Shown: positions 6,373 through 54,942, numbered from the stretch's first letter. The stretch: DNA of 64,000 nt from Candidatus Poribacteria bacterium (GCA_965232535.1 CBDDPW010000007.1:21420-85419); one strand, 5' to 3'. Notes: generated by a model from the letters alone, not told the origin. Made by a program: numbers and translations.

Positions 6373-6409
6373 GATCAAGCGAACGGATAGTGAGCGCGAT
6401 AGAGATCCG
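6373..6409 (+). repeat. 37-nt GATCAA hairpin micro-element, copy 1
   Basis: GATCAA-GC-GA-AC-GGATA-GT-GA-GC-GCGATAGAGATCC; at least 7 full copies in the window. Confidence 0.85.
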
Positions 6410-6654
6410 GATACCGTCCGCGATAGAAATCTCTTTGCACAGGCGTATGTGGCTTCGAAGGGATCCCATCTCCAGTTCGAGAACTCCTTACAGACATCAA
6501 ACACTTACCAAGAATACTACTTAATGGTTCATTCGCTAAGTATTTAACGCATGTCGAAACCAAGTTTTTTCTTGAAAACTTGGTTTCTTCCCTGAATCCT
6601 AGTGACCTCAAGATAACGATCTAGCTGACTCATCACCGGAAACTAGTCATGGAC

Positions 6655-6698
6655 AATCAAGGCAATCACCTAAATCCCATAAATCACAGTTCAGACAA
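6655..6698 (+). repeat. AATC-periodic repeat ending TTCAGACAA (also 49890-49915, 49957-50035 on minus, 55124-55167)
   Basis: AATC recurs every ~9 nt and ends in TTCAGACAA in all copies. Confidence 0.65.
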
Positions 6699-6763
6699 TG
6701 TGAGCTACCGACACCCAACACTTATCATAAATACTTACCGAGAGAACCACTTAATATTTCGAT

Positions 6764-9700
6764 CTACTTAACAACTGCCATGCGCTTCACCGAAGTGAAG
6801 TCGCCCGCCCGAAGTTGATAAAAATACAACCCACTTGAGACCGGTTCTCCGCTAGCCGACTTTCCATCCCAATGCGCCGCGGTGGACTTTAGTATATATA
6901 TCCCTGCGCTCTGGTGTCCCAGATCCAATCGACGCACCAGTGTGCCCGAAATGTCATAAACCAAAATCTCAACATCGGCATCAGCAGCGAGCTGATAGGG
7001 AATCCAAGTTTCCGGATTAAAGGGATTAGGATAGTTGGACAACAGCTTTGTTTCTCTGACAGTTGGTGGCACATGTCCCAGCCAGCCCCTGAGAAATTCT
7101 CGAGCAATCATTACCCCCGGCGATGGATCCGGGAGCGCCTCTAAACTGCTTAGCGCCTCGCGCATATTGGAAAGTCGCTGTTCAGAGAAATGGGTCGTGA
7201 TGCCCGGTGCAGACGACCATGAGGTGCCTTCGCCAAGGTGCGAAGCTACGAGGACCAAATCTGAAACGTCCACCAAACCATCAAAGTTGACGTCAGGCGC
7301 GGCTTGACTAGGCGAAGTTTCACCAAATTCACTAGCCACGATTACAAAATCGAGAATATCAACTGCACCATCCGAATTTACGTCTTCAAGATTCCGAAAT
7401 CTTGATTGCCCCTCAAACCGATTTGCGGTCACCGCCCCTCGAAACCCACCCAGGTGGATTCGAAAATCGGGAACAGTCACGTAGTTGTCTCGATGAGCGC
7501 ACCGTGTAACATGTTTCTGATTCAACCAACACGCTCCACGTAACACACGATGTTTTCCTGTCGCTGGTCCCCTGGGATTTGACCACTTACGCGCAGTGAA
7601 GTAGTATCTCGGGTGATACCAATCGAACACCCACTCCCAAACATTTCCTACCATGTCGTATGCGCCGTAAGGACTGACACCCTTGGGATAACCTCCGACA
7701 GGCGTCGTTCTGTGTGGTCCTGCCTCCCATGAATTGAGACGGGTTGGATCCCATTGATTCCCCCACGGATATAGGCGGCCGTCTACGCCCCTGGCAGCCT
7801 TTTCCCACTCAGCTTCAGTCGGTAACCGTTTCCCCGCCCATTCTAGGTACGCCAATGCGTCATTATAGCTCACTTGGACGACAGGATGATTGTCCTTGCG
7901 CCGAATTGAGCTGCCTTGGCCATGCGGTGCGCGCCAGGACGCTCCTCGCGGGCGCGGCCAATTATTCGATCCGTCCCACAGATATCCCCAGCCCTGTTTC
8001 TCGGCATCCGTAACATATCCCGTGGCATCGGCGAATTTCTTGAATTGCTTATTTGTGACTTCGTACTTGTCGATGTAATACGAGTCGAGATACACTCTGT
8101 GCTGCGGCTGTTCATGTATAAAGATTTCCCTGAGCGCGTTGGCGTCTTTTCGTCCCTGAACGATTGTCTCAAGTTGTGATTGGCTTGTTCCCATGATGAA
8201 CTCGCCCGCCGGAACGAGCACCATTTTTCCATCATCTTTGGGGTGCGTGACCTCGGTTCCGGCAATTTCTCCTAATATCACCGTACTAAGTCCCTTTACT
8301 CGCGTCTCCACCCTTTCGCCCGTGTGCAATTGAATTGTCGTATCTATCGGAGTGCGCCGAAAATTTGCAACGACAATGCGATTTGAACCCCCGTCCCTGA
8401 ATGTGACTGCCTTGACGAAATCGTCGCCCGTCCTCAGCCAGTGAACTTCAGTCGCCGCAATCTTTCGCGTCGATGAAAAATCTGCGTTAAGAAGAAAATA
8501 GCCCTGGGATCGGATAACATCATTCTGTTTATATCGCCGTTGTCTCGAACCGGTCGCATAGGCAATTCGATCGCTAATCTCCCCGTTCCATATATTCCTT
8601 TTTCCGGCAAAGATTTGAAATTGACCGTTATCCGGAACACTGATGATTCCAAGTTTATTGTCAATATTGACCCAATTGGAATCCACGGTTACGAGATCTG
8701 TGCTTACTCCTCTAGTACCTCGCAAGCGTACGTTTCCCGAACCCCAATATACATGTCTAGCGCCGTTGTTGAAAATATCGTTTGGCAAGTAATACGATAA
8801 TCCTGACTGCTCTACTTCATGAATTGGTCTCTTTGCCACCAAGAGTTCCATCATTACAGCCATCTTGTTCGTCGGTAGCGCGGCAAAACTGATGTAGTGA
8901 TCTACTCCAAAACCAAGCTTGGATCTTCCTTCTTGAATGTGCCCGGTGGTAACGAAACCATCCTTGGTCAGCCGATTGTTATGACGTATGGTCGTTCGAG
9001 CCGTATCCGTGTTATCTATCACCAGATTTCCAATCAGATTGGCTTCTGCCCACTCCGACATATAGTCGTCTCCCGGAACAAACAAAGCCATCGGATACCG
9101 TCTGGACAAATGTTTCCAACTAAATGACGCAAACACATCCTTATTGCGGGCATACAGAAAGTCGCAGTACCTGCTGTAGAAGTTGCCTTTGACCTTTTCT
9201 TGAAAGTCATATGAGCTTTCCGCACGAATGAGAGGCGCAAAATGGTGAAGAAGGTACGCTAGTCCCAAGTTCGCGTAACAATCGGTTTCATAGATAACTG
9301 ACCAACCCCTGCGCTGATGCCCGAACCTCCTACTGAAAACGCTTCCCCTGCTGCTCTGTTGTTGTTCCCATTGAAACGCCCCGAATCGAAGTTGCTCGAT
9401 GAATCGAGCATCGGCATCGTGAAACTCATTTTGAAGCAATGCCAACATGGGCACGATAAAGTAAGGTCCATAGACGTGTCTAGCCCAATCTTTGCCTTGT
9501 GGGTAAGCAAATCGCCCCGAATAGAGATGGGTTTTCTTGAGACCGTTCCATACATCTAACACATGATGAAATAGTGATTGGGGTACGGGCTGACCGTTGC
9601 TAACAAACGCGTAGTACGCCCAAGCAAGAGAATGCAAAGGAACGGCAATGTAATCAAAATTGTAGCCACCGTGTCCCTCGATCGTGAAATCTGGATGAAC

Positions 9701-10501
9701 ATTGACAGTATAAACCCATTCATTTACACGCCTGCCATCAACAACGGTTGGGTCTCTTCTGTCCCGAGCCACCGAAAACGTGTTCATAAACATCTCTTGT
9801 GACTTTAACAACCAATTTCTTGCGTTCGGATGAGTTGGATATAGACTGGCAGCCCAAGCCAAAACTTCGGAATTAATGGCATTGAATTCGGCGTGCGTAT
9901 CTCCATACGCGCGGGAGGCAGCGCGCTGCTCTAGCTGGTAATTTGCTTCGTGAATCACAACGCGGCGAAGAGCATTCCGTTCGTCCAAACTCAAATCCTC
10001 CCAGATTAAGCGTGCCCCTGCTACTGCTCTGGAAATTACCCACGGCGCTATCCACTGATCCGGCTGTTTTCCCCACTTCCGTCCATCTACACAGAAGTTA
10101 GTTCCGGTGACATGCGTTTCCGTTAGAAAGCGGAGGGCCGCTCGTGTTTGGGTAAGAAGCCAATCTCGATCTATTCCGGAGATGGACGAATCGTAATTCT
10201 CGTCTGCTTTGAGCAGTGCGCACACAAAAATAAAGTTCGCGTGAGATCGCATTTGGTTGTGGTCGTGGGTACCGCTCCCAAAGTACCCAACCTGCGGATT
10301 CCTGCGATAGTTGCCTGTCCAATGCAACTTTGCGTAACTCGGAAACTTCTGTAGGAATGAGATATAATCGGATTTGTTTGGGTAGTCTTTGCCGTAATAC
10401 GTGTGCGGAAGGGGCGGAGCTGCGGACAAGCTGGAGACGTAAAAGAGTGAAAATGTGAACAGCACAAACAGGACGGTGTGCTTGAGTGTCTGTTGGTTCA
10501 T
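6764..10501 (-). CDS. Secreted multidomain protein: uncharacterised (possibly lyase-like) N-terminal region, SUMF1/FGE-sulfatase domain, dockerin-like repeat, C-terminal sorting-like domain
   Basis: Signal peptide; FGE-fold motifs YYIDKYEVTN, RLPTEAEWEKAARG, YDMVGNVWEW; DVNSDGAVDILD and DVNFDGLVDVSD; NYPNPFNPETWIPY. Confidence 0.85.
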   Translation of the reverse strand: MNQQTLKHTVLFVLFTFSLFYVSSLSAAPPLPHTYYGKDYPNKSDYISFLQKFPSYAKLHWTGNYRRNPQVGYFGSGTHDHNQMRSHANFIFVCALLKADENYDSSISGIDRDWLLTQTRAALRFLTETHVTGTNFCVDGRKWGKQPDQWIAPWVISRAVAGARLIWEDLSLDERNALRRVVIHEANYQLEQRAASRAYGDTHAEFNAINSEVLAWAASLYPTHPNARNWLLKSQEMFMNTFSVARDRRDPTVVDGRRVNEWVYTVNVHPDFTIEGHGGYNFDYIAVPLHSLAWAYYAFVSNGQPVPQSLFHHVLDVWNGLKKTHLYSGRFAYPQGKDWARHVYGPYFIVPMLALLQNEFHDADARFIEQLRFGAFQWEQQQSSRGSVFSRRFGHQRRGWSVIYETDCYANLGLAYLLHHFAPLIRAESSYDFQEKVKGNFYSRYCDFLYARNKDVFASFSWKHLSRRYPMALFVPGDDYMSEWAEANLIGNLVIDNTDTARTTIRHNNRLTKDGFVTTGHIQEGRSKLGFGVDHYISFAALPTNKMAVMMELLVAKRPIHEVEQSGLSYYLPNDIFNNGARHVYWGSGNVRLRGTRGVSTDLVTVDSNWVNIDNKLGIISVPDNGQFQIFAGKRNIWNGEISDRIAYATGSRQRRYKQNDVIRSQGYFLLNADFSSTRKIAATEVHWLRTGDDFVKAVTFRDGGSNRIVVANFRRTPIDTTIQLHTGERVETRVKGLSTVILGEIAGTEVTHPKDDGKMVLVPAGEFIMGTSQSQLETIVQGRKDANALREIFIHEQPQHRVYLDSYYIDKYEVTNKQFKKFADATGYVTDAEKQGWGYLWDGSNNWPRPRGASWRAPHGQGSSIRRKDNHPVVQVSYNDALAYLEWAGKRLPTEAEWEKAARGVDGRLYPWGNQWDPTRLNSWEAGPHRTTPVGGYPKGVSPYGAYDMVGNVWEWVFDWYHPRYYFTARKWSNPRGPATGKHRVLRGACWLNQKHVTRCAHRDNYVTVPDFRIHLGGFRGAVTANRFEGQSRFRNLEDVNSDGAVDILDFVIVASEFGETSPSQAAPDVNFDGLVDVSDLVLVASHLGEGTSWSSAPGITTHFSEQRLSNMREALSSLEALPDPSPGVMIAREFLRGWLGHVPPTVRETKLLSNYPNPFNPETWIPYQLAADADVEILVYDISGTLVRRLDLGHQSAGIYILKSTAAHWDGKSASGEPVSSGLYFYQLRAGDFTSVKRMAVVK

Positions 10502-10657
10502 CAGTTAGTTAGTGGAATCCCGTCGAGTTTTACTTCGGAATTGATATAGCGAAATCCGTATCTCTATTATTCGGTAACCGCCTGCAAACAAAAGTGTGTC
10601 TGCTATCGTTTATGTCGAATGAATCCTAAAATTCAACACCCCGAAGTCGGACATTAA

Positions 10658-10902
10658 GAACCTGTTTGAAAAGCACATTTGTAGGGTGTGCACTGCGCAC
10701 CAGCCTTTAAAAGCCTCAGCGGGGCGGAAGGTGTGTAGAAATGCCAGAACCCCGTGCACCTAAGCCCCAGCGGGGATCAAGCGAGTGGATAACGAGTGCG
10801 ATAGAGATCCCACAGGTATGTAGCAGCCAACATCAAATACATGAAGGAATTTCCTACAAATTACCAAAAAATGGCTTTGCTACCGATTATTCAAACAAGC
10901 CC
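10658..10902. mobile_element. MITE with IS5-like ends carrying REP hairpins
   Basis: Ends GAACCTGTTTGAA / TTCAAACAAGCCC; TAA duplicated on both sides; first ~120 bp homologous to 32643-32852. Confidence 0.8.
10775..10811 (+). repeat. 37-nt GATCAA hairpin micro-element inserted in a GCCCCAGCGGGGC REP
   Basis: GATCAAGCGAGTGGATAACGAGTGCGATAGAGATCCC interrupts GCCCCAGCGGGGCGACAGGT (intact at 42413-42432). Confidence 0.85.
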
Positions 10903-11091
10903 TAAGTATATTCGATTTCCGGGCAAATATCAATTTCTTTATCTATCTCACAAGTCAAGAAAGAGTTCGGCTCCCTGACACAAACGCTCCGTTAATCTAC
11001 TTCAAATACGTTAATAACGCCAACGCTCAGCGGAACATTATGGTCCTCAATACGCCTTTCAACATACTTAAATTTGACATCCTCATAGGGT

Positions 11092-11252
11092 CGTAGGTTG
11101 GGTTGAACGGGAATCCGTAAATGATCCTTAATTTTAGAGGAGTTTTCGAGTGTTCACTTTGCCTGAACGTATCAAATATTGAGTGAAACCCAACATAAAT
11201 CGTACGTCCTGCCGCGATGAGTCATTATCTATTTTTGGATGCGTTTCCCCTG
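11092..11252. repeat. Partial copy of the ISAs1-ended MITE at 59300-59535
   Basis: GTAGGTTGGGTTGAACGG...GAGTGAAACCCAACA...GATGCGTTTCCCCTG homologous to 59374-59535; left end unclear. Confidence 0.75.
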
Positions 11253-11270
11253 GTATTCACATGTCTAAAA

Positions 11271-11299
11271 TTGACATCCGCACAGTGTTGTAGTAATAT
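11271..11299 (+). promoter_or_regulatory. Candidate sigma70 promoter
   Basis: TTGACA-17-TAATAT upstream of the 11478 gene. Confidence 0.45.
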
Positions 11300-11477
11300 C
11301 CCGACTGACGAGAGACAATCGAAGATAACCTGGAACGCCTATACCCGACAAGAGGGTGCGAATTCTTCACTTTGACTTTGTGGGTGCTGCACGGTAATGT
11401 GTTTTGATGCGAACCGGCAACGACTATCTTCTTCAACGACTGAAATCTCATCAATTTCGCAGGCAGAGGAGAAACTG

Positions 11478-14400
11478 ATGTATCGCAATCTGTTGTTCTG
11501 TTTTCTTTACGCCATCGCCAATCTATCATACGCTAAACTCGGTGGAGCGGATTCAGCAGTCGACGCCCATTGGGGTTGCGGTACCCCGACGCTCATGTGC
11601 GAGCACGCTTCGCGACGACCGGTTGCCGCAGCACCGCAACAGCCGCACCTCCCCGCCGCGCCTGCCCCCAAAGTACACGTAGGAAAAACCGAACAATTCT
11701 TCACGCATATTCCGGAACAGCAAGTGGAAGGAACCTGTCTCGCCATCGGTGAGAACATCTATCTCTATATCGAAACCGCGTTCCAACACATGATGACTGC
11801 TGCCCAGGCGCGCGAGGTGGTCGCTGAATTTGATTCTCGGATTTATCCGCAAGTTCATCGCTGGATCGGTTTCGAATGGAGGCCCGGCCTGGATCTCGAC
11901 ACAAGGATAACCGTGCTAATGCACGATGTTGGCGCAAATAACTCGGGCAAGGATTTCGGAGGCTATTTCTCGTCGGTGGATCAAGATCCAACCGCACTTA
12001 ACAGCAACCACCGAGAAATGGTCTATATGGACATTTTCCAGTTTAGAGAGCGATCGCGCTTCACGTTCTATAACAGTTTAGCCCATGAATTGGCACATCT
12101 CGTCAACTGGTATCAGAACGGCGGAACGTCTGATGAACGTTGGATTGAAGAAGGGATTGCGTCGTTCGTCGAATGGGCAATATACAGAAATGTCCACGGT
12201 ATCTTCATCGACGGCTACTTTGAAGAGCCGGGAATCTCGCTGACCTCGGGGAATACGTTCGAAACATATTATGGCGCGTCCTTTACACTTCTGCTATATC
12301 TATTTGAACAGCACGGCGGCGAAAGGTTTATTCGCGAGTTCGCGCGCCAAGACCTCCTAGGCATACGTGGTATTGACGCAACATTAACATCATTGGGTAG
12401 AGCGGAGCGTTTCGCCGATGTTTTTCAGAATTGGGCGCTTGCGAATTTTGTTAACAACCTCTCGCGCGGAAAATCATTGGGTTACAAAAATCTACGGAAT
12501 CGACGGATTGTGGCGCCTATCCGCGAGGTATCAAGCTATCCGACTATCCGCTCCGCCGACGTAGAAAACTGGGGGGCACGGTACATCGTGTTTCGTAATC
12601 TGCCGAGCCGGATTGAAATCACTTTGGATGGCAGTGCAGATGGCAACTTACATGCCCAACTGGCCCTGTTACCGGTTCGAGGCGCCGCTTCCGTCCATTC
12701 GATAGTATTTGATGAGGATAACAACGGACGAATCGAGTTTAAGGACCTGAATTCCCGTGACCGAGTCGTTCTGATGGTAACCTCCACCGCTGCGCAATCG
12801 TTTCGTTACGCCGCTACTACAGATGGTACGTCCGGTATCGTTGTTGGCCCCCCTCGCGAACTGAATTCAATAATTGCAGTCCCAAAAGCAACTACCCACG
12901 CGCTCGGTAATCGATCCCAACCAAGCCACAAACGGACATTTGTAGATTTCAAACTAGAACCTGTATCACAAGTGCATTTGTCAAGCTATTACCAAGATCT
13001 CCTTGTCAATAAGGGATTGGCTTATGCAGTGAGCGACTGGGGATTGGAGATTTTCAATCTAGAGATCCCGAACCAGCCGCAATTGGTTGGCAAGATTCCA
13101 ACCCCGGGAAACGCGCAAGGCATCGCAATCAATGGCCCAATAGCTTACGTCGCGGACGGTGCGGCTGGTGTAACGCTCATTGATGTGCAGCGACCTGATA
13201 ATCCAATGTTGGTTAAGACTTTCGGAAGTTTCGAGAGCGCCCGCCGTATCAAGATTGCCAACGAAAAGGCATATGCGCTAGACATCAAAAAAGGGCTCCA
13301 AATCTACGAACTTGATGAAATTCATAATCAGCCAAATCCACAGCCAATTGGTTCCTTGCAAACAAGTGGATTTGCTTTGGATATAGAGGTAGATGGCGAC
13401 ACGGTATATTTTAGCGATGATAACCAAGGATTTCAGATTCTCGACTTCGAATTCATTAACATCCCTGCATTTGCGGGAATTGTTGACACACTCGCCCTCG
13501 ATTTCGAGGTTGTAGATGGATTCGCTTACCTCGCTTCGGGCGATATGCGGATTGTTGACGTGCGAGATCGCCTGAAACCGAAGGAAATCTCAACCATTAA
13601 AACGCCTGGATTTGCAACAAGTATTGAGTTTCTCGACGGGTATGCTTATCTCACCGACATCCAATCCGGGCTTTATGTGATTGACGTCCGTAATCGTCAT
13701 CAGCCGCGAACTGTTGCCATTCAACCAACTTCGGGAGACGCTATGGGCGTGAATCTATTCAAATCCGACGTGAATGAGACGTTTGGATACATCGCTGACG
13801 GAAATCGTGGTCTACAAGTGATTGACCTCAGCACACCCAATCGCCCTACGTGGTTGCATCGTTACGATGCCTCCGGCGAAGCCCACGGTATGGACATTGT
13901 GCACACGGAAGAGGGGGGTCGAATTGCCTACATCGCATGTGGGACGGGCGGGATAAAGATAGTGGAATTTGAGAATGCATTCGACGCCGTTTTTAGGCAT
14001 CGCGTACCAATTACGGGCACGGCAGTGGATGTTAGGGTTGAGAATGGACATGCCTACGTTACCGCGGGAGAAAGTGGTTTGATAATCATGGAAATCGGCA
14101 ACCCTGATAACCCACGAATGGTTTCACACATTCGGACGGCTGCGCCCGCTTGGGGGGTCGAAATCAGAGGTGGGTATGTATACTTGTGCGCTGACGATTT
14201 GATCGTAGTCGATAGCCGCGAACCGATGAACAGCCGCGTCGTCGCCCGGCGCTCTATGCCGGGAAGTGCCTATCGAATAGCAATCGTCGACAACCTCGGG
14301 TACGTGGCGGCTCTCGGCGGAGGGTTGCAAATCTTTGACGTTGAGAACCCTGCCAACCCCCGGGCGATAGGAAGTTACGAATCACAGGGGAACGCGACAA

Positions 14401-15092: not shown

Positions 15093-15198
15093 TATCCGAC
15101 GAGGGGTTGGTTTTTAGATTCTTTTTGTACTGAGTTCGCCTCTCCTTTCAGAGTCCAACTATCTGGCGTAGGGCAGCAGCGATTGGTATATCCCAGAT

Positions 15199-16077
15199 TT
15201 ACCGCCCCGATTCCTTTACCTCTGAATCAGGTGTCAGGTCCCACAACAGAATCGTGCCATCCAGACTACCGCTCGCAAGTACGGACCCGTCATGGGAAAA
15301 CGCGAGAGAATAAACTGGCCACGTGTGTCCTTTTAGTACACGTAGACCTTCGCCAGAGTGGGCGTCCCACAAGCGAACTGTGATGACCTGAAATGCTCCA
15401 CCACTGGCTAGTATTTTCCCATCGTAAGAAAATGCCACGGAAACAACAGCATCTGCATGCCCCTTCAGTGTCTGAAGGTATTTTCCAGTATCAGCGTTCC
15501 ATAAACGTACAGTGTTGTCCTCAAGTCCCGCGGCAATTACACGTGCAGACTCATCGGGGGAAAAAGTGAGACAGTAAACAGCGACCGCGTGTTCTTCAAA
15601 CGCCCGGAAACTTTCTCTCGTTTGTATGTCCCAAATATGAATCCCACCCTCCAGACCGCCGCATGCGAGAACATCCCCTGTAGGGGAAAACTCTAGACAT
15701 GAAATAAAACCTTTGAATTCCTCAAGAATCTTCAGATTTTCGCCGGTACGAGAGTCCCACAGACGAACTGTCCTGTCCCAACTCCCACTGGCAAGAGTTA
15801 GTCCATCGGGAGAAAATGCAAGTTCAGAAACTTCGCCAGTGTGCCCCTTCATTGTGAATAAGTTCTCACCTGTGTGAAAGTCCCATATCCGAATCGCATT
15901 ATCTCGAGCCGTGCTTGCCAGCATGTTAATATCTGGGGAGATCGCCATAGATCCGTACCGTGATCGATGTATTTCAAATCGTCGTAACATTTTCCCCGCG
16001 CGATGATCCCAAAGATAAACCACACCATCGCGGCCTCCGGCAACTAACTTATCCCCATCCGCAGAGAAAATAGACAT
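15199..16077 (-). pseudogene. WD40 repeat protein, 5'-truncated by IS; current ATG lies inside the IS terminal repeat
   Basis: GH...FSPDG...LASGS.D..VRLWD repeats; frame begins mid-repeat exactly at the IS end. Confidence 0.75.
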
Positions 16078-17054
16078 CTTTCCAAAATAGATTCATGTAG
16101 TTACAGTAATCTTAGAGATTAGAATAACTACACCGTTTGGCAACTTGTCGAGCAATATCTCAGGTTCACAATGGCAGCAATCACATTCCACGTTTTCCCA
16201 TAGTTGCGATGTTTGCCTCGATAGATGTCTTTGGTAATGCGAAAAATCTTACACCGTCTAACGATGTGCTCAATGGCAACTCTTTGGGTTGCCAACCGTC
16301 GGTTGAATTGCTTCGCCTCCCGAGTCAAAGGCTTGCTCTGATATGCCTTGATGGGCGTTGAACTGTTGGCATACCGTTTGGCTATCCCCTGATAACCACT
16401 GTCAGCCAACTTCTCAGTGTCAGGAGAAATCGCTACACGGCTTTCCTTCAGGATTCTAAAATCGTGTACACTCCCTTTGCGGCAAACAACCGATAATAGT
16501 TCTAACATCGCCAAACATGCAATCAATTGAACTTTTATGGGTTTTTTTTACCGCTGTAGTAGGCACGCTGTCTTCTTGTTGGACGTTCAATCGGTTGCTC
16601 GGTGGCATCAATGATGATGGTTTGGAGATTGCTCTCTAATAAGTGCTTTCGGTTCTTCAGCGAAAGCACCTTAACTAACACATCAAGTATCTGATGATAG
16701 AGTTTGTTTGCATAAGATTCACTGATACCAAACTCCATGCCTAATCTGGCAAAGGTTGGATAGTGGCGCATATAGGTGAATGTCAACAGAAGGCGATCGG
16801 TCAATGCCACCTCCGATTTCTTTCCTCGTTTCTTCATCGGTCGTTCTTCTCGAAGGTTTTCGAGGTAAGCAGCCACACGCTCCAAAATAAGGTTGAAAGC
16901 TGCCTTGTCAATACCAACCGCTCGCAGAAATTGATCATCTGACAACTTTACTGCTTTTTCAAATTGACTCATGGGTATCCTTTCTACAACAGAAGATGTT
17001 GAAAGGATATAACGGAGAATCAAGCCAAATGGGTGCTTATTTTGGAAAGATGTC
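16073..17054 (-). mobile_element. IS5-family insertion sequence (ISL2-like)
   Basis: TIR GACATCTTTCCAAAATA at both ends, flanked by TA. Confidence 0.9.
16128..16972 (-). CDS. IS5-family DDE transposase split over two frames (-1 shift at A8 run 16542-16549)
   Basis: IIDATEQPIERP, YYSGKK, ADSGYQG, RVAIEH motifs. The junction reads GKKKPIKVQ, apparently missing the usual His, so it may be defective. Confidence 0.85.
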
Positions 17055-18119
17055 TATTACACAAAGTCAAAGAAGGCAACTTTTTATGGTGATTTTGTGC
17101 CCTTAACTGATGTGGAAATGGAAGAACAATTTCCTGATATAGACGAAAATAGACGCCGGTACAATACCGACGTACCCATTTTTCGTGCACCCTCGATGGG
17201 CGATCGCCCTAACCTCTGTTATGAATACAAAGGGGTTACGAACCCGCATCCGTCAGGTTGGCGTGTAGAACGAGCAAAATTACAAGCGATGGACGATGCT
17301 GGTGATATTATTTGGAGAACCGGCAAGACACCTTTACGGAAGTCTTACGCTGACGAATACAAAGGAAAGCCTGTCGGCTCTTTATGGACTGATATACCAC
17401 CTGCTGCAGGTGCAGAATATCTTGGTTATCAAACTCAAAAACCCCTTGCGTTGTTAAATCGTATCGTAAAAGCAAGTAGTAACCCTGGTGATGTTGTGTT
17501 TGATCCGTTCTGCGGGTGCGGCACTACGGTTTACTCTGCGCACCTCAACGATCGGCAATGGATAGGTTGTGACATTGCGGTGTTGTCTTTGCATTTAATG
17601 CGTGATGTGCTTTACAAGCGGTACGATCTTCAAGAAAACATCCATTATCAAGTGTCTGGCGTTCCCACCAGCATCGACGGGGCACACGAATTGTCCAAGC
17701 GAGACCCGCACCAGTTTCAGATTTGGGCGATAACCCTAGCGGGCGGTTTCTGTTCGTCCAAAAAGAGTGACGACAAAGGTGTGGACGGGCGCATATATTT
17801 TGTGCCAGACCTTGAAATGCAGAATATGGTCATATCGGTAAAGGGCGGCAAAACTGTTAATCCCGCACAAATCAGAGAACTACGGGGCACACTAGAACGT
17901 GAAAACTGCTTGATGGCAGGTTTCATTTGTTTGTCCAATCCCACAAAAGGAATGATACGAGAAGCCAACGAAGCCGGAGAAATAGAGCTTGAAGGAATCC
18001 AATATCCACGTTTGCAAATACGAACTATTCAGCAATTATTAGACGGCACTGGATTCGATACTCCAGTCCATGCAACTACATTGAATTGGGGAGACCAACT
18101 GAATTTGTTTTCCCAATAA
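17055..18119 (+). pseudogene. DNA methyltransferase / PD-(D/E)XK restriction endonuclease fusion, 5'-truncated at the IS
   Basis: GYQTQKPLALL, DPFCGCGTT (motif I), DKGVDG...ISVKGG; the frame starts at YYTKS at the IS end and has no DPPY/F catalytic motif. Confidence 0.8.
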
Positions 18120-32406: not shown

Positions 32407-32444
32407 GATCAAGCGACTGAATAGGGAGCGCGATAGTAAATCCT
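32407..32444 (+). repeat. 37-nt GATCAA hairpin micro-element inserted into an array REP hairpin
   Basis: Interrupts CACTCCAGCGGAGTGAGATGTC; absent from sister units. Confidence 0.85.
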
Positions 32445-32642
32445 GTGAGATGTCAATAGAACACGATTCCTCCCTGCGTCTGCACTCCAGCGGAGTGCAA
32501 TGTCGAGTGTTACTTGGTAGCCCCCCATTATCCCTGTCGGCATAATTCATTCTGCAAGTAACACCGGTTTTTCGCTCAATGACTAGCCGCGAAAAGTGTT
32601 CCGTCGTGGTCTGGTTTTCACTCCAGCGGAGTGAGATGTTAA

Positions 32643-45293: not shown

Positions 45294-45344
45294 GAATCGT
45301 ACCTCATGGAAAAGATTCTATTGTAGTTCAGCCTTCATGACGGA

Positions 45345-46628: not shown

Positions 46629-46652
46629 CTTATGACTTGATAAGGAGGGGCC

Positions 46653-47606: not shown

Positions 47607-47740
47607 AGGGCTGGGATCTTGGGAGTGGGGAAGCAGAGGCCGGTGTTTGTTTCATTGCGGACCTTATACAAATGCGTATAATAAGAGGTATTGACAGTTC
47701 AAAGGTTTTCACGGATTGTACAAAGCATCGAGGAAAGGAA

Positions 47741-48349: not shown

Positions 48350-48377
48350 AGCGCACCAACTTAAGGGAAAAACAAGA

Positions 48378-48728
48378 GTGCAAGAAAACCCAAAAGGGTG
48401 GTCGGAAATGGAGTGGTGGAGGAAAGTCATAATCATCGGCGGCGTGTTCCTATTTGGCATCTACGCCTATATCACGGAGACCCATAAAGCAGTCCACGAG
48501 GTCGTCATCAAACCGTGGATAGAAAGGCGGAGTGCGTGTGCGGAGTGGCAAGAGTCTTTCCAGGACAGGCGATTGATGGAGATCGTCAGGAAGGATGTTG
48601 ACGGGCAGACGTTTGAAGAGATAGGCGATTTCTACGGGGTTTCGGGGGAATGTGTAGAAAAGCGAGTCAACGAAGACCGCGAATTGTTTGACCGGCTTAA
48701 AGCCGAGTATATCTCCAGAAGTTACTGA
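48378..48728 (+). CDS. Small membrane protein with sigma70-region-4-like HTH
   Basis: TM segment VIIIGGVFLFGIYAYI; GQTFEEIGDFYGVSGECVEKR. Confidence 0.55.
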   Translation: MQENPKGWSEMEWWRKVIIIGGVFLFGIYAYITETHKAVHEVVIKPWIERRSACAEWQESFQDRRLMEIVRKDVDGQTFEEIGDFYGVSGECVEKRVNEDRELFDRLKAEYISRSY

Positions 48729-48766
48729 CTCAGCAAGGGCGAATAGGGAGGGTGATAGAGATATTA

Positions 48767-49739
48767 ACCAATGGTGCTAGTTTAGAGGCTGAATTGAGCG
48801 ATTGATAAAGGGACAAAGCCATCATCTTCAATCGACAGGCCGTCCCACTGCACCAAGATATTAAACAAAGCCATTGTAAAGCCGACTCGCGTTTTGAAGT
48901 AGCTCCAACGACGATGCATGACTTTCTTAAAATGACAAACGAGCGTCAACATTGATAAAATCGTCTCTACCAGCATTCGAGAATTCCACTCGCCACGTCG
49001 GCACAGACGCAAGTTGGAAGGGAACCAATCTGCTTTGGCAAAACCTTCATCGGCAAACACAACCATCTGGTCATTGACCCCATCAACGAGGTGTTGAAAA
49101 GCAGTTCCATCATATACATTGGCAGTGTCGCAATCCCAATTGACAATCAGCCCGAGGTGATTGTGTAGCAGGCAAAGTTTTCCACCTACAATCCATCGTT
49201 GATTGGAAATACCTTTGCGTCCGATTTGACGCTTAGAACGTCCTTCTCGACGCGGGTGAATCAATTCAATGCCGTAAGTGTCAATTACGCCGATGAGCGA
49301 AGGCTCTGCCATGAACACGTCAATAAGATGTCGATACCCCTCAAACAAGCGAAACAATCGAGTGCGATGGGGTAATCTTGGGAATACGTGTTTGAAATTG
49401 TTTGCTATCCAGCGATAGAAGGCTCGATTGCTCACGCCTTTGAGCGCAAAGAGCATGGCAATGGTAACCACTTCGGACGGATAGAGTTTGGCTTGGCTAT
49501 GCTTACGATTCTTGCCGCGCTGTGAGAGTTTATCATCAACACAACAAAACAATTCTGTGGTAAAATCTTCTATGGTCATGAGTCTAGATTTCCTTCCGTT
49601 ATTTGATAACTACTGGTACTCAAATTAACGGTAGAATTGAGGAAATCGTCTCATGACCATGATATATTTTGTACCAAAACAAAGCCAAAATGGAGTGTTA
49701 TGCCTATTTACCTCCAAATTTCAAACTAGCACCATTGGT
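48767..49739 (-). mobile_element. IS982-family insertion sequence, apparently intact
   Basis: Perfect TIR ACCAATGGTGCTAGTTT; 5-bp TSD TATTA. Confidence 0.92.
48782..49579 (-). CDS. IS982-family DDE transposase
   Basis: LFCCVDD, SEVVTI, FPRLPHRTR, VIDTYG, FADEGF, RMLVET. Confidence 0.88.
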   Translation of the reverse strand: MTIEDFTTELFCCVDDKLSQRGKNRKHSQAKLYPSEVVTIAMLFALKGVSNRAFYRWIANNFKHVFPRLPHRTRLFRLFEGYRHLIDVFMAEPSLIGVIDTYGIELIHPRREGRSKRQIGRKGISNQRWIVGGKLCLLHNHLGLIVNWDCDTANVYDGTAFQHLVDGVNDQMVVFADEGFAKADWFPSNLRLCRRGEWNSRMLVETILSMLTLVCHFKKVMHRRWSYFKTRVGFTMALFNILVQWDGLSIEDDGFVPLSIAQFSL

Positions 49740-49966
49740 TATTATACGGGACCAACTGCGGACGACTGGGAAGGCGAAGCTCGCCGTTTGGGGCGCAGGA
49801 AGAATTTGATTGGCCGCGGCGTTTTGGATGACACGCTCTAAGCGTATCGCCCTTACTGTCGGTTCGGTTGATTTCAGTTAATTGATAGGAATCCCTTAAT
49901 CCGCGATTCAGACAAATGTCTGAGAGATTTAGATTTTTGCGAGAATGCTAGAAAAACTGTCTGAAT

Positions 49967-50003
49967 GGGATCTCTATCGCCTTCACTATTCGTTCAGTTG
50001 ATC
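49967..50003 (-). repeat. 37-nt GATCAA hairpin micro-element inserted in an AATC/TTCAGACAA repeat
   Basis: Reverse complement GATCAACTGAACGAATAGTGAAGGCGATAGAGATCCC. Confidence 0.85.
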
Positions 50004-50141
50004 TGATTAAACAGATTTCGCAGATTACACGGATTTTAAGCAGTGTATTCTATCGCATAAATTTCATCTGTACAATCTTGTGTTTGAGGCACTTTGCGTT
50101 TTGGAAAAGTAGCCGAAAAATGTCATTATCGAGGAAAGATC

Positions 50142-51457
50142 GTGAGTATTCCAGATGTGTCCGTCCCCGAAAGTTACTATCTCGACGAATTGTCCGAGAT
50201 CACGCGCGAAATAGTGGAGAGGTCAGCTAACGGTAACTATATCTACCGTGGCGAACCTGAACATTATGAAGAAGAACCCTACTTTGGTAAAGTCTCCTCG
50301 GCCCTCTACCGGATTGTGCCGAAGAATATGACTCAGGTCGATTTGATCTAGATCGTGTCGAGGAAGAAATACTAGAAGAGGCCAGAAACCACATTCGCGA
50401 GGGCGCCAAAATATACTTTGAAATCTTAACGGAACTCCAACACTTCGGAAGTCCAACCAATCTATTAGACTTTACCACCGACTACCATATAGCCCTTTTC
50501 TTCGCATGCGACGGATCTCATGACAAAGATGGCAGGATTATCTTACTGAAAAGAACCGATGAGATTAACAAAAAATACCGAATCAATGAGTCTCAAAATC
50601 CACTGAACCGCGTCATTGCCCAGAAAAGTATTTTTGCACACCCGCCCAACGGTTTTATTGACTCCAAAGATATTAGCATTATTCCTGTGGCGGCGAACCT
50701 AAAACAGTGGATACTAATTCATCTGCGGAAATTTCAAGACATATCTACCCAGAGCATCTACAACGACCTTCACGGATTTATCAGACATAGAAATTTGCGT
50801 TCTTCAAGAGAAGCGATTTATCCCCGTATTTTTGCAGATCGTGCATTAGACAGCCCTGCGGACGAAAACCAGACCATCGAAGAACGAAAAGACCAGTTGC
50901 AGAGAGCAATTGGATTTTATACTACAGCGATACAATATTCACCGTATGACGCTACAACCTATGTGAAACAGGGCTGGTGTTACCAAGGAATAAACGAGTT
51001 TGAGCGCGCCATTGAAACTTTTAGCAAAGCCATACTGCTTGATCCCAGTAATGCCAACGCTTACTTCAATCGCGGCCTAAACTATAAGAGTAAAGGCGCG
51101 AATGACCTTGCCATAGCAGACTTTACCAAAACTATAGAACTAGAACCCAATTACGCCCCGAGTTATACCAGTCGTGGTCTCGCATACCTCAGCAATAAAA
51201 ATTATGACCGTACTATCGAAGACTATACTACAGCGATAAAGCTCAACCCCGACGATGCGAGCGCCTATTGTTTTCGAGGTATGGTGTGGTTGCGCTTGGA
51301 GAAATGGAAAGAGGGCAAAGCCGACCTGATAACAGCTAAGGACAAAGGACATGACATCAGCGTTTCATTTCGTAAAATATTCCCACGCGCTGGCGACTTC
51401 AAGAGTTTACATGGATCGAATTTGCCCGAAGACATAGTCGCCCTGTTGACGCCTTAG
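50142..51457 (+). pseudogene. FRG-domain / TPR protein with a single-base frameshift at ~50320 (or sequencing error)
   Basis: YIYRGE...SSALYR in one frame; LQHFGSPTNLLDFTTDYHIALFFAC, NRVIAQKSIF and TPRs continue in the frame of ORF 50687-51457. Confidence 0.82.
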
Positions 51458-51478
51458 AGGATTGTTCAGCAAAAGAAA

Positions 51479-51745
51479 GAGCGACAAAAACAAGCTATCG
51501 CGCTAATCGAATAACTCTCCTCAGAAGAATTGGAAATGGTCGTTGATTTTCTCACGGATTTTCAGCATAGACGAGTGCGGGACACGGCTCACGCAATAGA
51601 CTCCGATAAAAAATATTGACGAGTGTGGAAGATACTAACAAAAATTTAAGGAAGCGGTACCAGGCGGATGAAGTTGAGCGCATTGAATATAGGATACTCT
51701 TTTACCCGAATATAAACCGCTAAATCCGTTGAAGTTCAACCTGCG
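51479..51745 (+). pseudogene. Possible decayed type II toxin-antitoxin pair
   Basis: RQKQAIALIE*LSSEELEMVVDFL (antitoxin-like) then EYRILFTRI*TAKSVEV (RelE-like). Confidence 0.35.
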
Positions 51746-51884
51746 AAAATCCTCGATTCAGACGATCACCAAAAGGATTGCTATTGTAGAACTCTCAATT
51801 GAAAATCGATATGGAAACATCGCATAGCACACATTGAGTGCCTTCGAACAGGTAATCAATGACGAATCTTGGAAGGACGCTATC

Positions 51885-53810
51885 ATGCCAAATAACTTCC
51901 ACCAAAAACTAATCAACCTCCTCAAAACCGACGAAAGCCTCCTAGACGAGGAAGGCGAACTCATTACTGCCGCCATCCATCGCCGCGCGCGACAACTCGA
52001 CCACGCCCTCGTACGGTTGCTGCTCTCGGACGACGAAATCAAAGCTGAATTCTTTGAAGAAATCGACGGACACTGGATCTTCAATGTCCATGCCTTCACT
52101 CACTATCTGTCCAGCAAAAATTTCCTCGCCAACTCCTACACCCGCTTCCGCAACAAAATCGGCTTGAACATAGACGACAAATACCTACGCGAACGCGGCG
52201 AGGTGTCTCTCGTTTGGCCCTACAAAGATTGCGTCCTAGAGGGCGGACAGACAAGAGAGGAAGAAAAACGCACAGAAATTTTCTTCAATGAGCTTCTGGC
52301 GCAAGACGAGATTAACCGCCTCCTCGACCCGAAGGTGCTGACCAACTGGAAACGCTACACGGCGGAAGGTGAGGAGAACCCAAGCGAGATTCGACGCGAC
52401 GAGGACGGTGTAATACGCGAAAACCTGGTTATCAAAGGCAACAACCTCGTAGCGTTACACACGCTCAAGGGTCAGTTTCGTGGGCAGGTCAAATTAATCT
52501 ACATCGATCCACCCTACAACCCCGATAGTCAAGCGAATACATTTACTTATAACAACAGTTTTAATCACTCGAGTTGGTTGACATTCATGAAAAATCGCTT
52601 GGAAGTAGCGAAGGAGTTGCTTACCAAGGATGGGGTACTCATAGTTGCTATCGACGAAAACGAACAAGCTTATCTCAGCGTCCTGCTCAGTGAACTATTT
52701 GCCGAATATGAAATACACTGTATTACTATCGTACATAACCCTCGTGGTGTTCAGGGGACAAATTTCTCATACACGCATGAGTATGCCTTTTTCGTCATTC
52801 CTCAAGGAAAAAAGGTTATCGGAAACCGGAGAATTCCGTCTGATGAGATTACTTGGTCCAACTTCAGGAATTGGGGTGGAGAATCGAGACGGGAAAATGC
52901 CAAGAATTGCTTTTACCCGGTTATCGTTGAGAATGATGAGGTTGTAGGATTTGGCGACGTGGCTGAAGACCACGAACATCCTCTGACTCAAACTGTTTCT
53001 CACGGGGAAAGGGACTTTGTTTATCCAATTGATGCCAATATGGTTGAACGTAAATGGAGATATGCGCGTCAAAGTGTCGATGAAGTTAAGCATCTTCTGA
53101 GAGCTAAGCGGACGAACACAGGTTATCAAATTGAAATAGGCAAAGATTTCGAAGTACATCGCACGGTTTGGCAAGATAGCAGATACGATGCCAATATCTA
53201 TGGCACACAACTCGTTAAAGCACTTGTGCCCAATTGTAATTTTGCCTTCCCAAAATCTCTCTGGAATGTTTACGACTGCTTATACTCCGTCGTAGCAAAT
53301 GACAAGGACGCCATTGTCTTAGATTTTTTCGGCGGAAGCGGGACTACCGCCCATGCCGTGTTAGAATTGAACAAAGACGGAGGCAACCGAAAATTTATCA
53401 TCTGTGAACAAATGCACTACGTTGAAACCGTAACGATAGAGCGTGTAAGGAAGGTAATCGAACTGAATAATCAAGATGATTTCATTTACTGGGAACTTAT
53501 GCAATACAACGAAGCCTATATGGATAAAATCCAAGCCTCACAATCATCCGAGGAACTCGTCGCACTGTGGGTGGAAATCGCCGAAAACTCTTTCCTGAAC
53601 TACTATGTCAATCCAAAAACGCCGGAAGATGCGGTAGAGGCGTTCAAAGCAATTGGGCTTACCGAGAACGGATTGGAAAAACAAAAGAAGTGCTTGGCAG
53701 AACAACTCGACAAAAACCAACTGTACATTCACCTCTCCGAAATCGACGACCATGACTTTGATATCAACGAAAACGACAAGACGTTAAATCGGTCCTTTTA
53801 TGGTGATTGA
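51885..53810 (+). CDS. mod: Type III restriction-modification methyltransferase
   Basis: ENLVIKGNNL, IYIDPPYN, LDFFGGSGTTAHAVL. Confidence 0.9.
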   Translation: MPNNFHQKLINLLKTDESLLDEEGELITAAIHRRARQLDHALVRLLLSDDEIKAEFFEEIDGHWIFNVHAFTHYLSSKNFLANSYTRFRNKIGLNIDDKYLRERGEVSLVWPYKDCVLEGGQTREEEKRTEIFFNELLAQDEINRLLDPKVLTNWKRYTAEGEENPSEIRRDEDGVIRENLVIKGNNLVALHTLKGQFRGQVKLIYIDPPYNPDSQANTFTYNNSFNHSSWLTFMKNRLEVAKELLTKDGVLIVAIDENEQAYLSVLLSELFAEYEIHCITIVHNPRGVQGTNFSYTHEYAFFVIPQGKKVIGNRRIPSDEITWSNFRNWGGESRRENAKNCFYPVIVENDEVVGFGDVAEDHEHPLTQTVSHGERDFVYPIDANMVERKWRYARQSVDEVKHLLRAKRTNTGYQIEIGKDFEVHRTVWQDSRYDANIYGTQLVKALVPNCNFAFPKSLWNVYDCLYSVVANDKDAIVLDFFGGSGTTAHAVLELNKDGGNRKFIICEQMHYVETVTIERVRKVIELNNQDDFIYWELMQYNEAYMDKIQASQSSEELVALWVEIAENSFLNYYVNPKTPEDAVEAFKAIGLTENGLEKQKKCLAEQLDKNQLYIHLSEIDDHDFDINENDKTLNRSFYGD

Positions 53811-53836
53811 CCGGTTGTCTCGCGTTGCAAAAATTG

Positions 53837-54053
53837 TAACTGTTTAGTTCGATCCAAAAAGAGAAAAAATTGGTCTGGCATTTGTGTGAACCTGATCGAC
53901 AGCAGGCGGAGCGTTCCTCTGTGGAAGAGGCACCTCTTTGCGGGAGAGGATCAAGCGACTGGATAAGGAGCGATCAAATGAGATCAAGCGAGTGGATGGC
54001 GAGCGCAATAGAACTCTTGTAAAAAGTCTGCTAGAGATCCACTAAACACTTAC
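53837..54053. mobile_element. Probable MITE containing stuttered micro-element copies (53949-54018)
   Basis: GTAACTGTTTAGT / ACTAAACACTTAC inverted ends; a similar end at ~54795. Confidence 0.55.
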
Positions 54054-54123
54054 CATTTGGCTATGCCCTGATAACCACTGAAAGAAAATTTCCCTTGCTT
54101 CCCGCAACTCGTCAATTTTTAAC

Positions 54124-54152
54124 TTGATAACTTAACATGTATATAGTATAAT
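54124..54152 (+). promoter_or_regulatory. Near-consensus sigma70 promoter between mod and res
   Basis: TTGATA-17-TATAAT. Confidence 0.6.
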
Positions 54153-54721
54153 CAAATGCAGATACATTGTTAACGCCAAAAAACGCGAACCACTACTAAC
54201 TCAACTCGGCGTTCGCAATGTGATGAATTGGCGCCATCGTCAAAAAAAAGCGAAAAAGTGTCGGGTTTCGTCAAGTTTCGTCAAGTTTATACCCCGTCAT
54301 TGACTGGAATGGCGTGATTTTTCGGAATCAGTCTGCGCTTTTGTCCGACAGAGCGCAGATACCGAGTTTTTTCCACGTGGAAGCATGAGATTGACGAAAA
54401 TGAGATCAATTTATCCATAGTGTAGCAAACGCGAACCAAAAACTCGGTTTCTTTCTAATAGGTAGCAACTTGCGTAGATAGAAAAATTACCAATGCCGAA
54501 ACATATTGAGCACAGCAAATTTATAGACGCATCATTACTTTCTAACCCTCTATCCAAGTGCTCCCCAAAAAAGTGGGGTCAAATATACGAGCGCACTTTA
54601 GCGCACTTTGGTGAAGTGTGTCGCGCATGGCTTCAAGTCGCGCCCGGTAAGGCTTCAAGCGCAATTTCAGAGCGTGTCGAAAGAGTGCGCTCTAATCTCG
54701 ACAACATCACTGTAAACGAAC

Positions 54722-54781
54722 GATTAAGGAAGCGAATAGCGACCGATCAAACGAATGAATAATGACTGCGATTGAGTTCCC
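54722..54781 (+). repeat. Micro-element: 23-nt partial copy abutting a full copy
   Basis: GATTAA-GG-AA-GC-GAATA-GC-GA-CC then GATCAAACGAATGAATAATGACTGCGATTGAGTTCCC. Confidence 0.75.
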
Positions 54782-54905
54782 ATAAAGATTCATAGCAACT
54801 GTTTAGTCCATTGATTTCTGGGGTCGAGCCTTATGAATTTAGACGGTCTTTTTTGCTTTTTTTGGCGTACCCGCTGCGGATGCCCATTTTCCCGGTTCGT
54901 AGTAG

Positions 54906-54942
54906 GATCAACTGAGCGGATAGCGAAGGCGATAAGGATCCC
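54906..54942 (+). repeat. 37-nt micro-element inserted in a GTAG REP
   Basis: GATCAACTGAGCGGATAGCGAAGGCGATAAGGATCCC between GTAG and ATTCCCAATCCCGAT; uninterrupted sister REP at ~54979-55003. Confidence 0.85.

Follow-up and report, generated by a model that had tools for sequence, protein, structure and literature searches.

A 37-nucleotide (nt) repeat, present in a 64,000-nt stretch of DNA from a Candidatus Poribacteria bacterium (G000:C7:21420-85419; the whole stretch is referred to as the window), belongs to a large strand-specific family whose members share a covarying hairpin and are inserted, with loss of a target triplet and no target duplication, in other repeats and in one another. 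An initial annotation of the window had described seven full copies and two 23-nt partials of this element, had interpreted them as a structure-selected motif, and had proposed spread by a route not involving a DDE transposase. The analyses described here confirmed that this observation was real and partly supported the interpretation. The source genome (G000) is that of a sponge-symbiont bacterium and is represented by a 5.6-Mb assembly of 23 contigs with a completeness of 88.7%.

A total of 678 copies were detected in G000 when up to 4 substitutions were allowed over 23 fixed positions, and 98 of these had no substitutions. Searching with the first 21 positions (the head) and at most 1 mismatch gave 982 matches, as compared to 4 for a reversed control. 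By our arithmetic, the summed element DNA amounts to ∼36 kb, or 0.65% of the genome. Only 35 copies were located within gene proxies, which were defined as nonoverlapping open reading frames (ORFs) of at least 150 amino acids, a crude measure rather than a curated annotation that covered 78% of the genome.

Each unit consists of R-ATCAA (R, purine), a 17-nt hairpin, and the tail GCGATAGAGATCC(C/T). The hairpin has two 2-bp stems (ab, positions 7 and 8; cd, positions 11 and 12; and their partners) around a tandem G-A/A-G step, which we take to be a sheared tandem pair, and is closed by a G...A pentaloop, G-R-A-T-A (G-R-A-U-A in RNA), which is presumably of the GNR(N)A type. Near-fixed positions (∼93 to 99% each) were GATCAA at 1 to 6 (with G1 at 76%), G9 A10, G13, A17, G20 A21, and GCGATAG at 24 to 30, the tandem G-A pairs and the G...A ends of the loop being ∼97% fixed, while wide variation was observed at positions 7, 8, 11, 12, 18, 19, 22, and 23. 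Two GATC sites are present in each unit, whose termini form a short inverted repeat, GGATC...GATCC.

The variable positions change in pairs. Among the 678 copies, pair 7-23 was paired in 90.7% (58.6% expected from independent columns), pair 8-22 in 92.8% (62.2% expected), pair 11-19 in 95.3% (GC 305, CG 169, AT 157; 48.2% expected), and pair 12-18 in 94.4% (80.5% expected). Similar results were obtained with 76 distinct copies from nine genomes, for which the four variable pairs were 94.7% paired against 62.8 ± 1.9% in shuffles and 118 cells were altered on both sides against 27 in shuffles; neither value was reached in any of 500 shuffles, and sliding the partner by 1 to 3 columns lowered pairing to 24 to 62%. 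The initial proposals that paired stem bases change together and that the structure is selected on one strand therefore hold for both sets of copies. Outer and inner stem types occurred in a broad range of combinations. In the lists of the ten commonest types per pair, G-T cells (∼310) far outnumbered A-C cells (∼55), indicating that the fold is selected on the strand as written and not on its complement.

The sites of insertion were apparent from copies nested within other copies. A total of 204 of the 678 copies (30%) were directly preceded by the head of another copy, and the host was broken after position 23 (119 copies), 17 (59 copies), or 10 (26 copies) and at no other position. The same three sites were recovered by an unbiased scan over all host positions (115, 70, and 24, the remainder being weakly informative noise), and exact patterns gave 96, 42, and 18 nests for sites 23, 17, and 10, respectively. 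In 64 of the 77 listed two-sided cases, the host resumed four positions later [(23,27), 33 cases; (17,21), 26 cases; (10,14), 5 cases], indicating that the host loses three bases, either 24 to 26, 18 to 20, or 11 to 13. Exact patterns detected no nests after position 6, none with GCG kept, and no head-to-tail tandems in G000. The sequence G-Y-G (Y, pyrimidine) is present at positions 7 to 9 in 54% of copies, yet it is never used for insertion. Two other Poribacteria genomes contained 12, 3, and 2 nests and 22, 4, and 3 nests at the three sites and none in the forbidden classes. Hosts interrupted at the loop site were mostly of the cd = GC or AC type and none had cd = CT, so that the lost triplet was GCG or GTG. 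Of 59 guests at the loop site, 57 retained their own GCG, among them every one of the 16 whose host triplet was GTG, indicating that the triplet is replaced rather than straddled.

Comparison of empty and filled paralogues of four host repeat sites, with 40 to 59 empty paralogues each and the empty form taken as ancestral, gave a similar picture. Hairpin 1 of a miniature element with terminal inverted repeats (TIRs) was empty in 42 cases (G-GCG-G) and contained one copy in 12 (39 nt), two in 8 (73 nt), and three in 1 (108 nt), while hairpin 2 was empty in 40 and contained one copy in 11 and two in 7. A repetitive extragenic palindromic (REP) sequence of the form GTAGGGTGG...TGCCCACC was empty in 54 cases (GCAC) and contained one copy in 17 (38 to 39 nt), and a REP of the form GTAGGCGGG...TTGCCCCGCC was empty in 59 (52 exactly GCATC) and filled with one copy in 12. 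The length step was +34 at three of these sites (37 in, 3 out) and +33 at the fourth, and no target duplication was detected at any of the four. Many copies share the descent of their host repeats, and such counts overstate the number of independent events. The nests and the filled host repeats bear out the initial reading that insertion occurs in unrelated repeats and in the element itself without target site duplication (TSD), a reading that had overlooked the loss of 2 to 6 target bases, usually 3.

The lost triplet is also related to the first base of the incoming unit. Elements at sites whose empty paralogue contained GCG began with G (92 cases) or A (3 cases), and those at sites with GCA began with A (23 cases) or G (3 cases), the latter set extending over at least four different GCA host sites; the first base of the element agrees with the third of the lost triplet. 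The target is a G-Y-R triplet (GCG, GCA, or GTG) that is replaced strand specifically and without duplication. These triplets sit in or beside hairpin-forming repeats, namely, REPs tagged with GTAG, the hairpins of the miniature TIR element, and the three self sites.

Several other models for the target were rejected. A bipartite arrangement, with the head before a target GCG and the tail behind it, does not fit guests that keep GCG even where the host triplet is GTG or the target is GCA. A GATC target, which would imply a 31-nt unit cleaved behind each GATC, is incompatible with the 42 and 40 empty hairpins, which contain no GATC. One young copy in a GTAGGCGGG REP (+35) could be explained by clean insertion between G and C, an explanation that fails for the nests and for the other sites (+34). 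Stem bases do not appear to act as guides for the flanks, as the mutual information of positions 11, 12, 18, and 19 with the flanks was near the null level; signals at positions 1, 8, 22, and 36 mirrored the host families. Template-switch and IS608-like circle schemes were worked through by hand, and none gave loss of G-Y with retention of R.

The element shows polarity with respect to both REPs and replication. GTAG was present within 14 nt upstream on the same strand in 159 of 456 dereplicated nonnested copies, as compared to 27 with GTAG downstream, 18 with CTAC downstream, and 6 with CTAC upstream, indicating that the element enters GTAG REPs in one orientation despite their palindromic stems. 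The strand carrying the G-A motif (G-A strand) lay on the C-rich strand in 254 clusters and on the G-rich strand in 146, counted as merged clusters in regions with a clear GC skew and flanking gene proxies, those in the same composite repeats not being fully independent. This bias was detected with flanking genes on the G-rich strand (103 versus 73) and on the C-rich strand (63 versus 25), the gene proxies themselves favoring the G-rich strand (1676 versus 983). Orientation relative to flanking genes was weak (198 clusters co-oriented and 155 opposed). A replication-strand bias combined with weak transcriptional polarity favors a DNA-level process at the replication fork.

The element is confined to Candidatus Poribacteria lineages. 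A 30-nt pattern had 316 to 787 matches per genome in all 10 genomes of the genus, 2 matches in another genus of the family, and 15 to 26 matches in each of the four genomes of genus g4, which belongs to another family; copy number among carriers thus ranged from 2 to 787, while none were found in the other 26 relatives searched, and a reversed control gave no matches in any genome. A covariance model built from 76 copies had matches in 17 genomes (G000 included) of a class-wide sample of 151, namely, 9 of 9 in family f1, 7 of 25 in f3 (g4, 4/4; g6, 2/19; g12, 1/1), 0 of 98 in f2, and 0 of 18 in others. The search of the genome and its relatives that the initial annotation had proposed revealed a large family with a narrow phyletic range. 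There were no matches to the element in viral contigs. Public sequencing runs matching window positions 49500-55500 included no RNA data set; three runs contained half or more of the stretch, and those labeled sponge or marine metagenome contained 6 to 8% of its words. The spacer between two conserved large genes at window positions 6104-6763 varied from ∼190 to ∼660 nt over nine genomes of the genus; the orthologous spacers were mostly unalignable and contained different element nests in 4 of the 9.

A search for candidate enzymes detected nine Y1_Tnp matches in G000, similar to REP-associated tyrosine transposases (RAYTs). At least five were good matches, and the five best genes were each flanked by a REP family of their own. 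Y1 proteins of G000 are encoded at C21:413619-413963, C21:411386-411730, C20:457634-457966, C4:314544-314873, and C12:9689-10018. All 10 of the genus's genomes and all 4 of the g4 genomes contained Y1 genes. Covariance-model matches were found beside Y1 genes at 4 of 8 loci in G000 and at 15 of 20 loci in four other genomes. No TnpB hits were obtained in G000, and the window itself, as initially stated, contains no mobilizing gene. Two tandem RAYT genes (G000:C21:411386-413963; loci L055 and L056) share one REP family, CACTCC-NNNN-GGAGTG followed by ATGTCAATAGA, whose ATAGA 3′ motif resembles the element tail (GCGATAGAGA), a resemblance that may be due to chance or to a shared recognition motif. 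An IS110 element (13 hits, of which 12 were near-identical copies) was rejected as a candidate, there being no copy inserted in the 37-nt element. This 1.8-kb IS110-family element, with ends CTTGAGAGCG...GTTACTTGGTAG, is located at G000:C7:14471-14905 and at 11 other places outside the window (L143 to L147), and several of its copies adjoin the GAGTGTTA found in the tail of CACTCC-family REPs.

We tentatively interpret the element as a nonautonomous mobile DNA unit that would be moved in trans, as single-stranded DNA, by a Y1 HUH transposase of the RAYT/IS200 kind, a reading to which we assign a probability approaching, without reaching, an even chance. The copying machinery would read the hairpin by its shape and the flanks, G-A pairs, and loop by their sequence, so that stem bases would be free to change while remaining paired. 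Excision or copying would yield the G-A strand in single-stranded form, and at the replication fork it would be joined to target DNA that is likewise single stranded, the enzyme being supplied in trans. ATCAA, located immediately 5′ of the hairpin, could take the role that GTAG has for REPs, and the element would then be a parasite of the REP-RAYT system, with copies also being carried passively whenever host repeats move. According to published work (PMC8266576; PMC3733652), RAYTs use REP DNA in single-stranded form as their substrate, cleave it at a dinucleotide on the 5′ or 3′ side of one hairpin, are guided by a tetranucleotide 5′ of the hairpin, and need conserved stem mismatches, properties that fit a single-hairpin unit cut on both sides. 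A DDE transposase is unlikely, given the loss of target bases without duplication; that part of the initial proposal of a non-DDE route stands, while transfer by an HUH enzyme or RAYT is only plausible.

A number of results weigh against this interpretation. We know of no HUH transposition that deletes target bases, and we found no HUH scheme that accounts for both the loss of G-Y and the agreement of first and third bases. The active strand of IS608-type elements is on the lagging-strand template, and the bias observed here runs in the opposite direction. The element itself lacks GTAG. Y1 genes were equally frequent in genera without the element (g3, 8/10; g6, 7/7), giving no specific phyletic link, and 4 of the 8 Y1 loci in G000 carried no element copy. 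The initial annotation had suggested looking for a copy that flanks an HUH or RAYT gene; among the loci read (the five best in G000 plus two in other genomes), no Y1 gene was flanked by bare copies, those nearby lying within the REPs of that gene. The number of bases lost also varied, being 2, 5, or 6 at some REPs (GA, GAGTG, and GTGCGG), and the young GTAGGCGGG REP copy resembles a clean 35-nt insertion between G and C. No orthologous difference consisting of the element alone was found in ∼234 kb of synteny between G000 and its 95%-identical relative G004 or at three further loci in five genomes. Thermodynamic folding gave no support (z-scores of −0.6 to +1.0), and DNA energy parameters did not give the hairpin; folding energies being uninformative, the structural case rests on covariation.

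Alternatively, the element may lack mobility of its own, with its numbers being due to the spread of REPs and MITEs (miniature transposable elements with inverted repeats) and its stems being shuffled by gene conversion. In low-copy genomes the element was present only inside the miniature element with CTGTTTGAAAAGT ends, an identical “young” copy common to G000 and G004 entered within a 170-nt TIR element that is absent there in four relatives, and all 11 older GTAGGCGGG REP copies share an A start and the same junction despite nine stem types. When G000 and G004 were compared (∼84 to 96% identity by block; 24 of 30 copies anchored), 9 anchored copies were shared and every difference was a larger insertion, deletion, or rearrangement. 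A pure passenger is nevertheless very unlikely in view of the 204 nested copies, which are placed precisely at three positions and are of variants that differ from their hosts, and the similar length steps at four unrelated host sites. Guests were mostly of the ab = GT type (70) and hosts mostly of the GC type (68), a difference that is the age order of subfamilies. One variant occurred unchanged in 11 copies, which lay in 8 contexts spanning different host copies and two REP families. A tree was built for 31 of the host miniature elements with the element columns removed (a 206-column alignment with 12 of 28 inner branches unsupported); on it, filled hairpin 1 required nine changes, at least three of them imposed by branches with good support, and the filled state was not clustered (183 of 500 shuffles were as low), a scatter that recombination between host copies could also produce. 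Sequence comparisons thus suggest that movement of the element itself, some of it recent, and carriage by moving host repeats both occur. We see a similarly slim chance that the family is a host-selected motif, such as a protein-binding hairpin with a function in nucleoid structure, transcript stability, or methylation control, on which selection keeps the fold. The 643 of 678 copies outside the ORF proxies, persistence throughout the genus, the conserved structure, and the paired GATC sites would be expected of such a motif; guests destroy host hairpins in 30% of copies, however, copies have neither a constant position nor a constant orientation with respect to genes, conservation of intergenic sites between species is lacking, and copy number varies by the full range given above among relatives.

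An RNA route, in which the unit is transcribed, adopts its hairpin as RNA, and returns by reverse transcription or RNA-templated repair, and which has been proposed for the small dispersed repeats (SDRs) of cyanobacteria, is improbable. Acceptance of G-T (G-U in RNA) and not A-C on the G-A strand would suit RNA, as would the G-R-A-U-A loop, and small target deletions are typical of target-primed reverse transcription, e.g., by R2. With RNA parameters, the minimum-energy fold of 5 of 6 window copies comprised the covarying hairpin and a 2-4:26-28 helix, with energies of −4.2 to −6.1 kcal/mol that were no better than those of shuffles. Against this route, RVT_1 had no hit in G000, G006, or G009, each of which has hundreds of copies; gene orientation was weak, and the replication-strand bias held in both gene contexts; there was no excess of 5′-truncated copies, the 311 tails lacking a head in register being mostly host tails of nests; and no Rfam family matched the element, with no matches over the window at the gathering score and a lone, unrelated match off the element for positions 53900-55000 at an E value of ≤1 (IS009; 15 bits against a gathering score of 117). 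Above the cutoff, RVT_1 hits were confined to three of the genus's 10 genomes, namely, G007 and, to a marginal extent, G005 and G008. ORFs of 620 to 695 amino acids with weak, mostly subthreshold similarity to RVT_1 (24 to 28 bits) were observed in G001, G002, G003, G004, G005, and G008 and in none of G000, G006, and G009.

It is also unlikely, if less so, that an unknown non-HUH DNA enzyme or hairpin repair cuts and replaces the triplet, with the link to RAYTs being coincidental; a structure-specific nuclease combined with templated synthesis and an integron-integrase-like recombinase acting on folded strands are examples. No known transposase scheme accommodates the replacement rule and first-base match, the phyletic distribution of Y1 genes does not follow that of the element, and the unused G-Y-G at positions 7 to 9 points to a structural rule beyond present understanding. 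Searches provided no candidate gene for such a route, while polarity in GTAG REPs and a replication-strand bias are expectations for an HUH enzyme. A somewhat better, though still doubtful, possibility is a cut-and-replace reaction on single-stranded DNA in which a single-hairpin unit of 35 to 37 nt would be swapped for G-Y-R in DNA prone to hairpin formation by a hijacked RAYT-type enzyme, with the target dictating or matching the first base. Were this so, the element would live on REP-RAYT systems as a hyperparasite and would parallel the cyanobacterial SDRs as a sister phenomenon. Movement in trans as single-stranded DNA by a Y1 HUH enzyme remains the interpretation that we favor.

The copies in the window are listed in Table 1. 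With up to 3 mismatches allowed, the pattern of the initial annotation matched the window five times, and no match was obtained in 100 shuffles that preserved dinucleotides. The covariance model, run with filters off, gave eight matches at an E value of ≤0.1, corresponding to the seven full copies and the partial at 53949; the second partial, at 54722, was not reported by the model and was plain by eye, so that all nine were accounted for. Both partials had been noted to stop at the hairpin end and to restart with GATCAA, and they proved to be hosts interrupted by a nested copy, with host tails 3′ of the guest. The stem mismatch reported for copy 54745 was present and involves C8 and C22. All window copies were located between long ORFs.

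Table 1. Copies of the 37-nt element and their heads in the window
Feature	Position	Strand	Context
Full 37-nt copy	6373..6409	+	Nested after position 10 of a decayed host copy (head 6363-6372, remainder 6410-6432)
Full copy	10775..10811	+	Replaces GCG in the second GCCCCAGCGGGGC hairpin of a TIR-bounded miniature element; first GCCCCAGCGGGGC hairpin, near 10715-10730, empty
Long-tail variant copy; tail one base longer than usual (GCGATAGTAAATCC)	32407..32444	+	Within CACTCC...GGAGTG + ATGTCAATAG REP; empty sister REP at ∼32476-32500
Full copy	49967..50003	-	Within AATCCG..ATTCAGACA-type repeat
Head, positions 1-23, outermost copy of triple nest	53949..53971	+	Likely tail remnant GCTAGAGATCC at 54030-54040
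Head, positions 1-10, middle copy of triple nest	53972..53981	+	Third partial, absent from the initial annotation
Innermost full copy of triple nest, degenerate tail	53982..54018	+	
Head, positions 1-23, host copy	54722..54744	+	Tail remnant ATAAAGATTC behind guest at 54782-54791
Full guest copy, one stem mismatch	54745..54781	+	Nested after position 23 of host 54722
Full copy	54906..54942	+	Directly 3′ of GTAGTAG (GTAG-tagged REP context)

Some of the host repeats are elements in their own right. The miniature element at window positions ∼10640-10900 (L072, L073, and L001) has the ends CTGTTTGAAAAGT and ACTTTTCAAACAG and contains a GTAG REP and two GCCCCAGCGGGGC hairpins; more than 60 copies of this CTGTTTGAAAAGT-ended element are present in G000, and it also occurs in other genera and in another family, which suggests that it has spread horizontally. 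The 170-nt element has the ends ACCATTTCTC and GAGAAATGGT and is located at L151:898-1070 (G000:C22:539898-540070); G000 and G004 carried it, whereas the corresponding site in G001, G002, G008, and G003 lacked it, a clean insertion difference due to a host repeat. Among neighboring genes, a type III restriction-modification pair (window positions 51834-57818) consists of Mod (51834-53810) and Res (55236-57818), and the 1.4-kb spacer between them is dense with repeats, five of which are copies or partials of the element. At 17097-18119 is a second N6_N4 methylase to which an inactive endonuclease domain is fused. A 990-bp insertion sequence at 16069-17059 has two ORFs, with HTH_Tnp_4 and DDE_Tnp_4 domains, that are probably one frameshifted transposase; at least 25 near-identical copies are found in G000 and many in relatives.

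The element is neither a REP, a MITE, an IS200/IS605 derivative, nor a member of an Rfam family. It resembles REPs and the REPINs of RAYT systems in having a short hairpin with conserved single-stranded flanks and conserved non-Watson-Crick stem positions, in its hundreds of intergenic copies, strand specificity, and vertical persistence, and in the presence of RAYT genes in the genome. Unlike these repeats, it has no GTAG or CGTC tag (the 678-copy table gives GATCAA 5′ and GCGATAGAGATCC 3′, an upstream GTAG being that of the host REP) and is not arranged in inverted doublets as REPINs are, both orientations occurring in only 9 of 93 multicopy clusters and nests being co-oriented. Nor does it flank a RAYT gene as the repeat of a REPtron would, since it was found near Y1 genes only inside REPs where these loci were read; its stems vary freely, whereas those of REPs are family specific, and it inserts into REPs and into itself. 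With IS200/IS605 elements and their gene-less relatives, the palindrome-associated transposable elements, it shares the absence of target duplication, strand specificity, dependence on a hairpin, a replication-strand bias, and a tetranucleotide 5′ of the hairpin that could serve as a guide. It differs from them in having a single, central hairpin where those elements have one at the left end and another at the right end, in losing target bases, in lacking a fixed 5′ tetranucleotide (left flank, ≤0.36 bits per position), in the absence of TnpB from its genome, and in the opposite direction of its strand bias. Like the MITEs of DDE transposases, it is small, nonautonomous, and intergenic and has a short TIR (GGATC...GATCC), and many copies ride inside true MITEs; it differs in having no TSD (2 to 6 bases are replaced), a far smaller size, a covarying internal hairpin, and strict polarity.

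The initial annotation had not recognized the repeat as a described element. This holds for the sequence family, whose core string was absent from the literature searched, but not for its kind, which has already been described in the SDRs of Nostocaceae. The literature search yielded no paper linking Poribacteria with RAYT or REPIN. Poribacteria combined with “repetitive extragenic palindromic” gave, in what was accessible of the matching texts, only a marine-biodiscovery review, and the accessible portions of the matches listed for Poribacteria mobile elements held nothing on such repeats.

The closest known kind appears to be SDR4, SDR5, and SDR6 of Nostocaceae, a likeness drawn from their description and not from a comparison of sequences. 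Elhai et al. reportedly described these in 2008, within a set of eight named sequence families, as repeats of 21 to 27 nt with a common hairpin, compensatory changes, and nested self-insertion. Both kinds are tens of nucleotides long and highly repeated, have a conserved hairpin with compensatory changes, lie inside other repeats and nested in their own copies, and are inserted precisely beside GCG, and no enzyme is known for either. The element differs in its length (37 nt), in its host, which belongs to a different phylum, in its tandem G-A motif, in replacing a target triplet where the SDR target is split, and in the paucity of HIP1 (128 sites) in its genome. As described in reports that cite this work (PMC5861425, PMC4390886, PMC3116915), SDR5 is placed precisely between bases 3 and 4 of GCGATCGC, after its GCG, and one of these (PMC5861425) states that no SDR-like repeat was known outside Nostocaceae. 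The element would rank with the smallest known mobile elements and would provide a second instance of a rare kind. Its clean insertion record, comprising self-insertion sites, length steps, and the first-base rule, provides testable constraints on mechanism and a short list of enzymes. Together with the REP and MITE layers, its copies shape the intergenic regions of Poribacteria and will cause short-read assemblies of sponge symbionts to break up. A detailed description of mobile elements only tens of nucleotides long exists for one case, that of Nostocaceae, and the present repeat would add a second, unrelated-looking family from a distant uncultured phylum, with nearly a thousand heads per genome.

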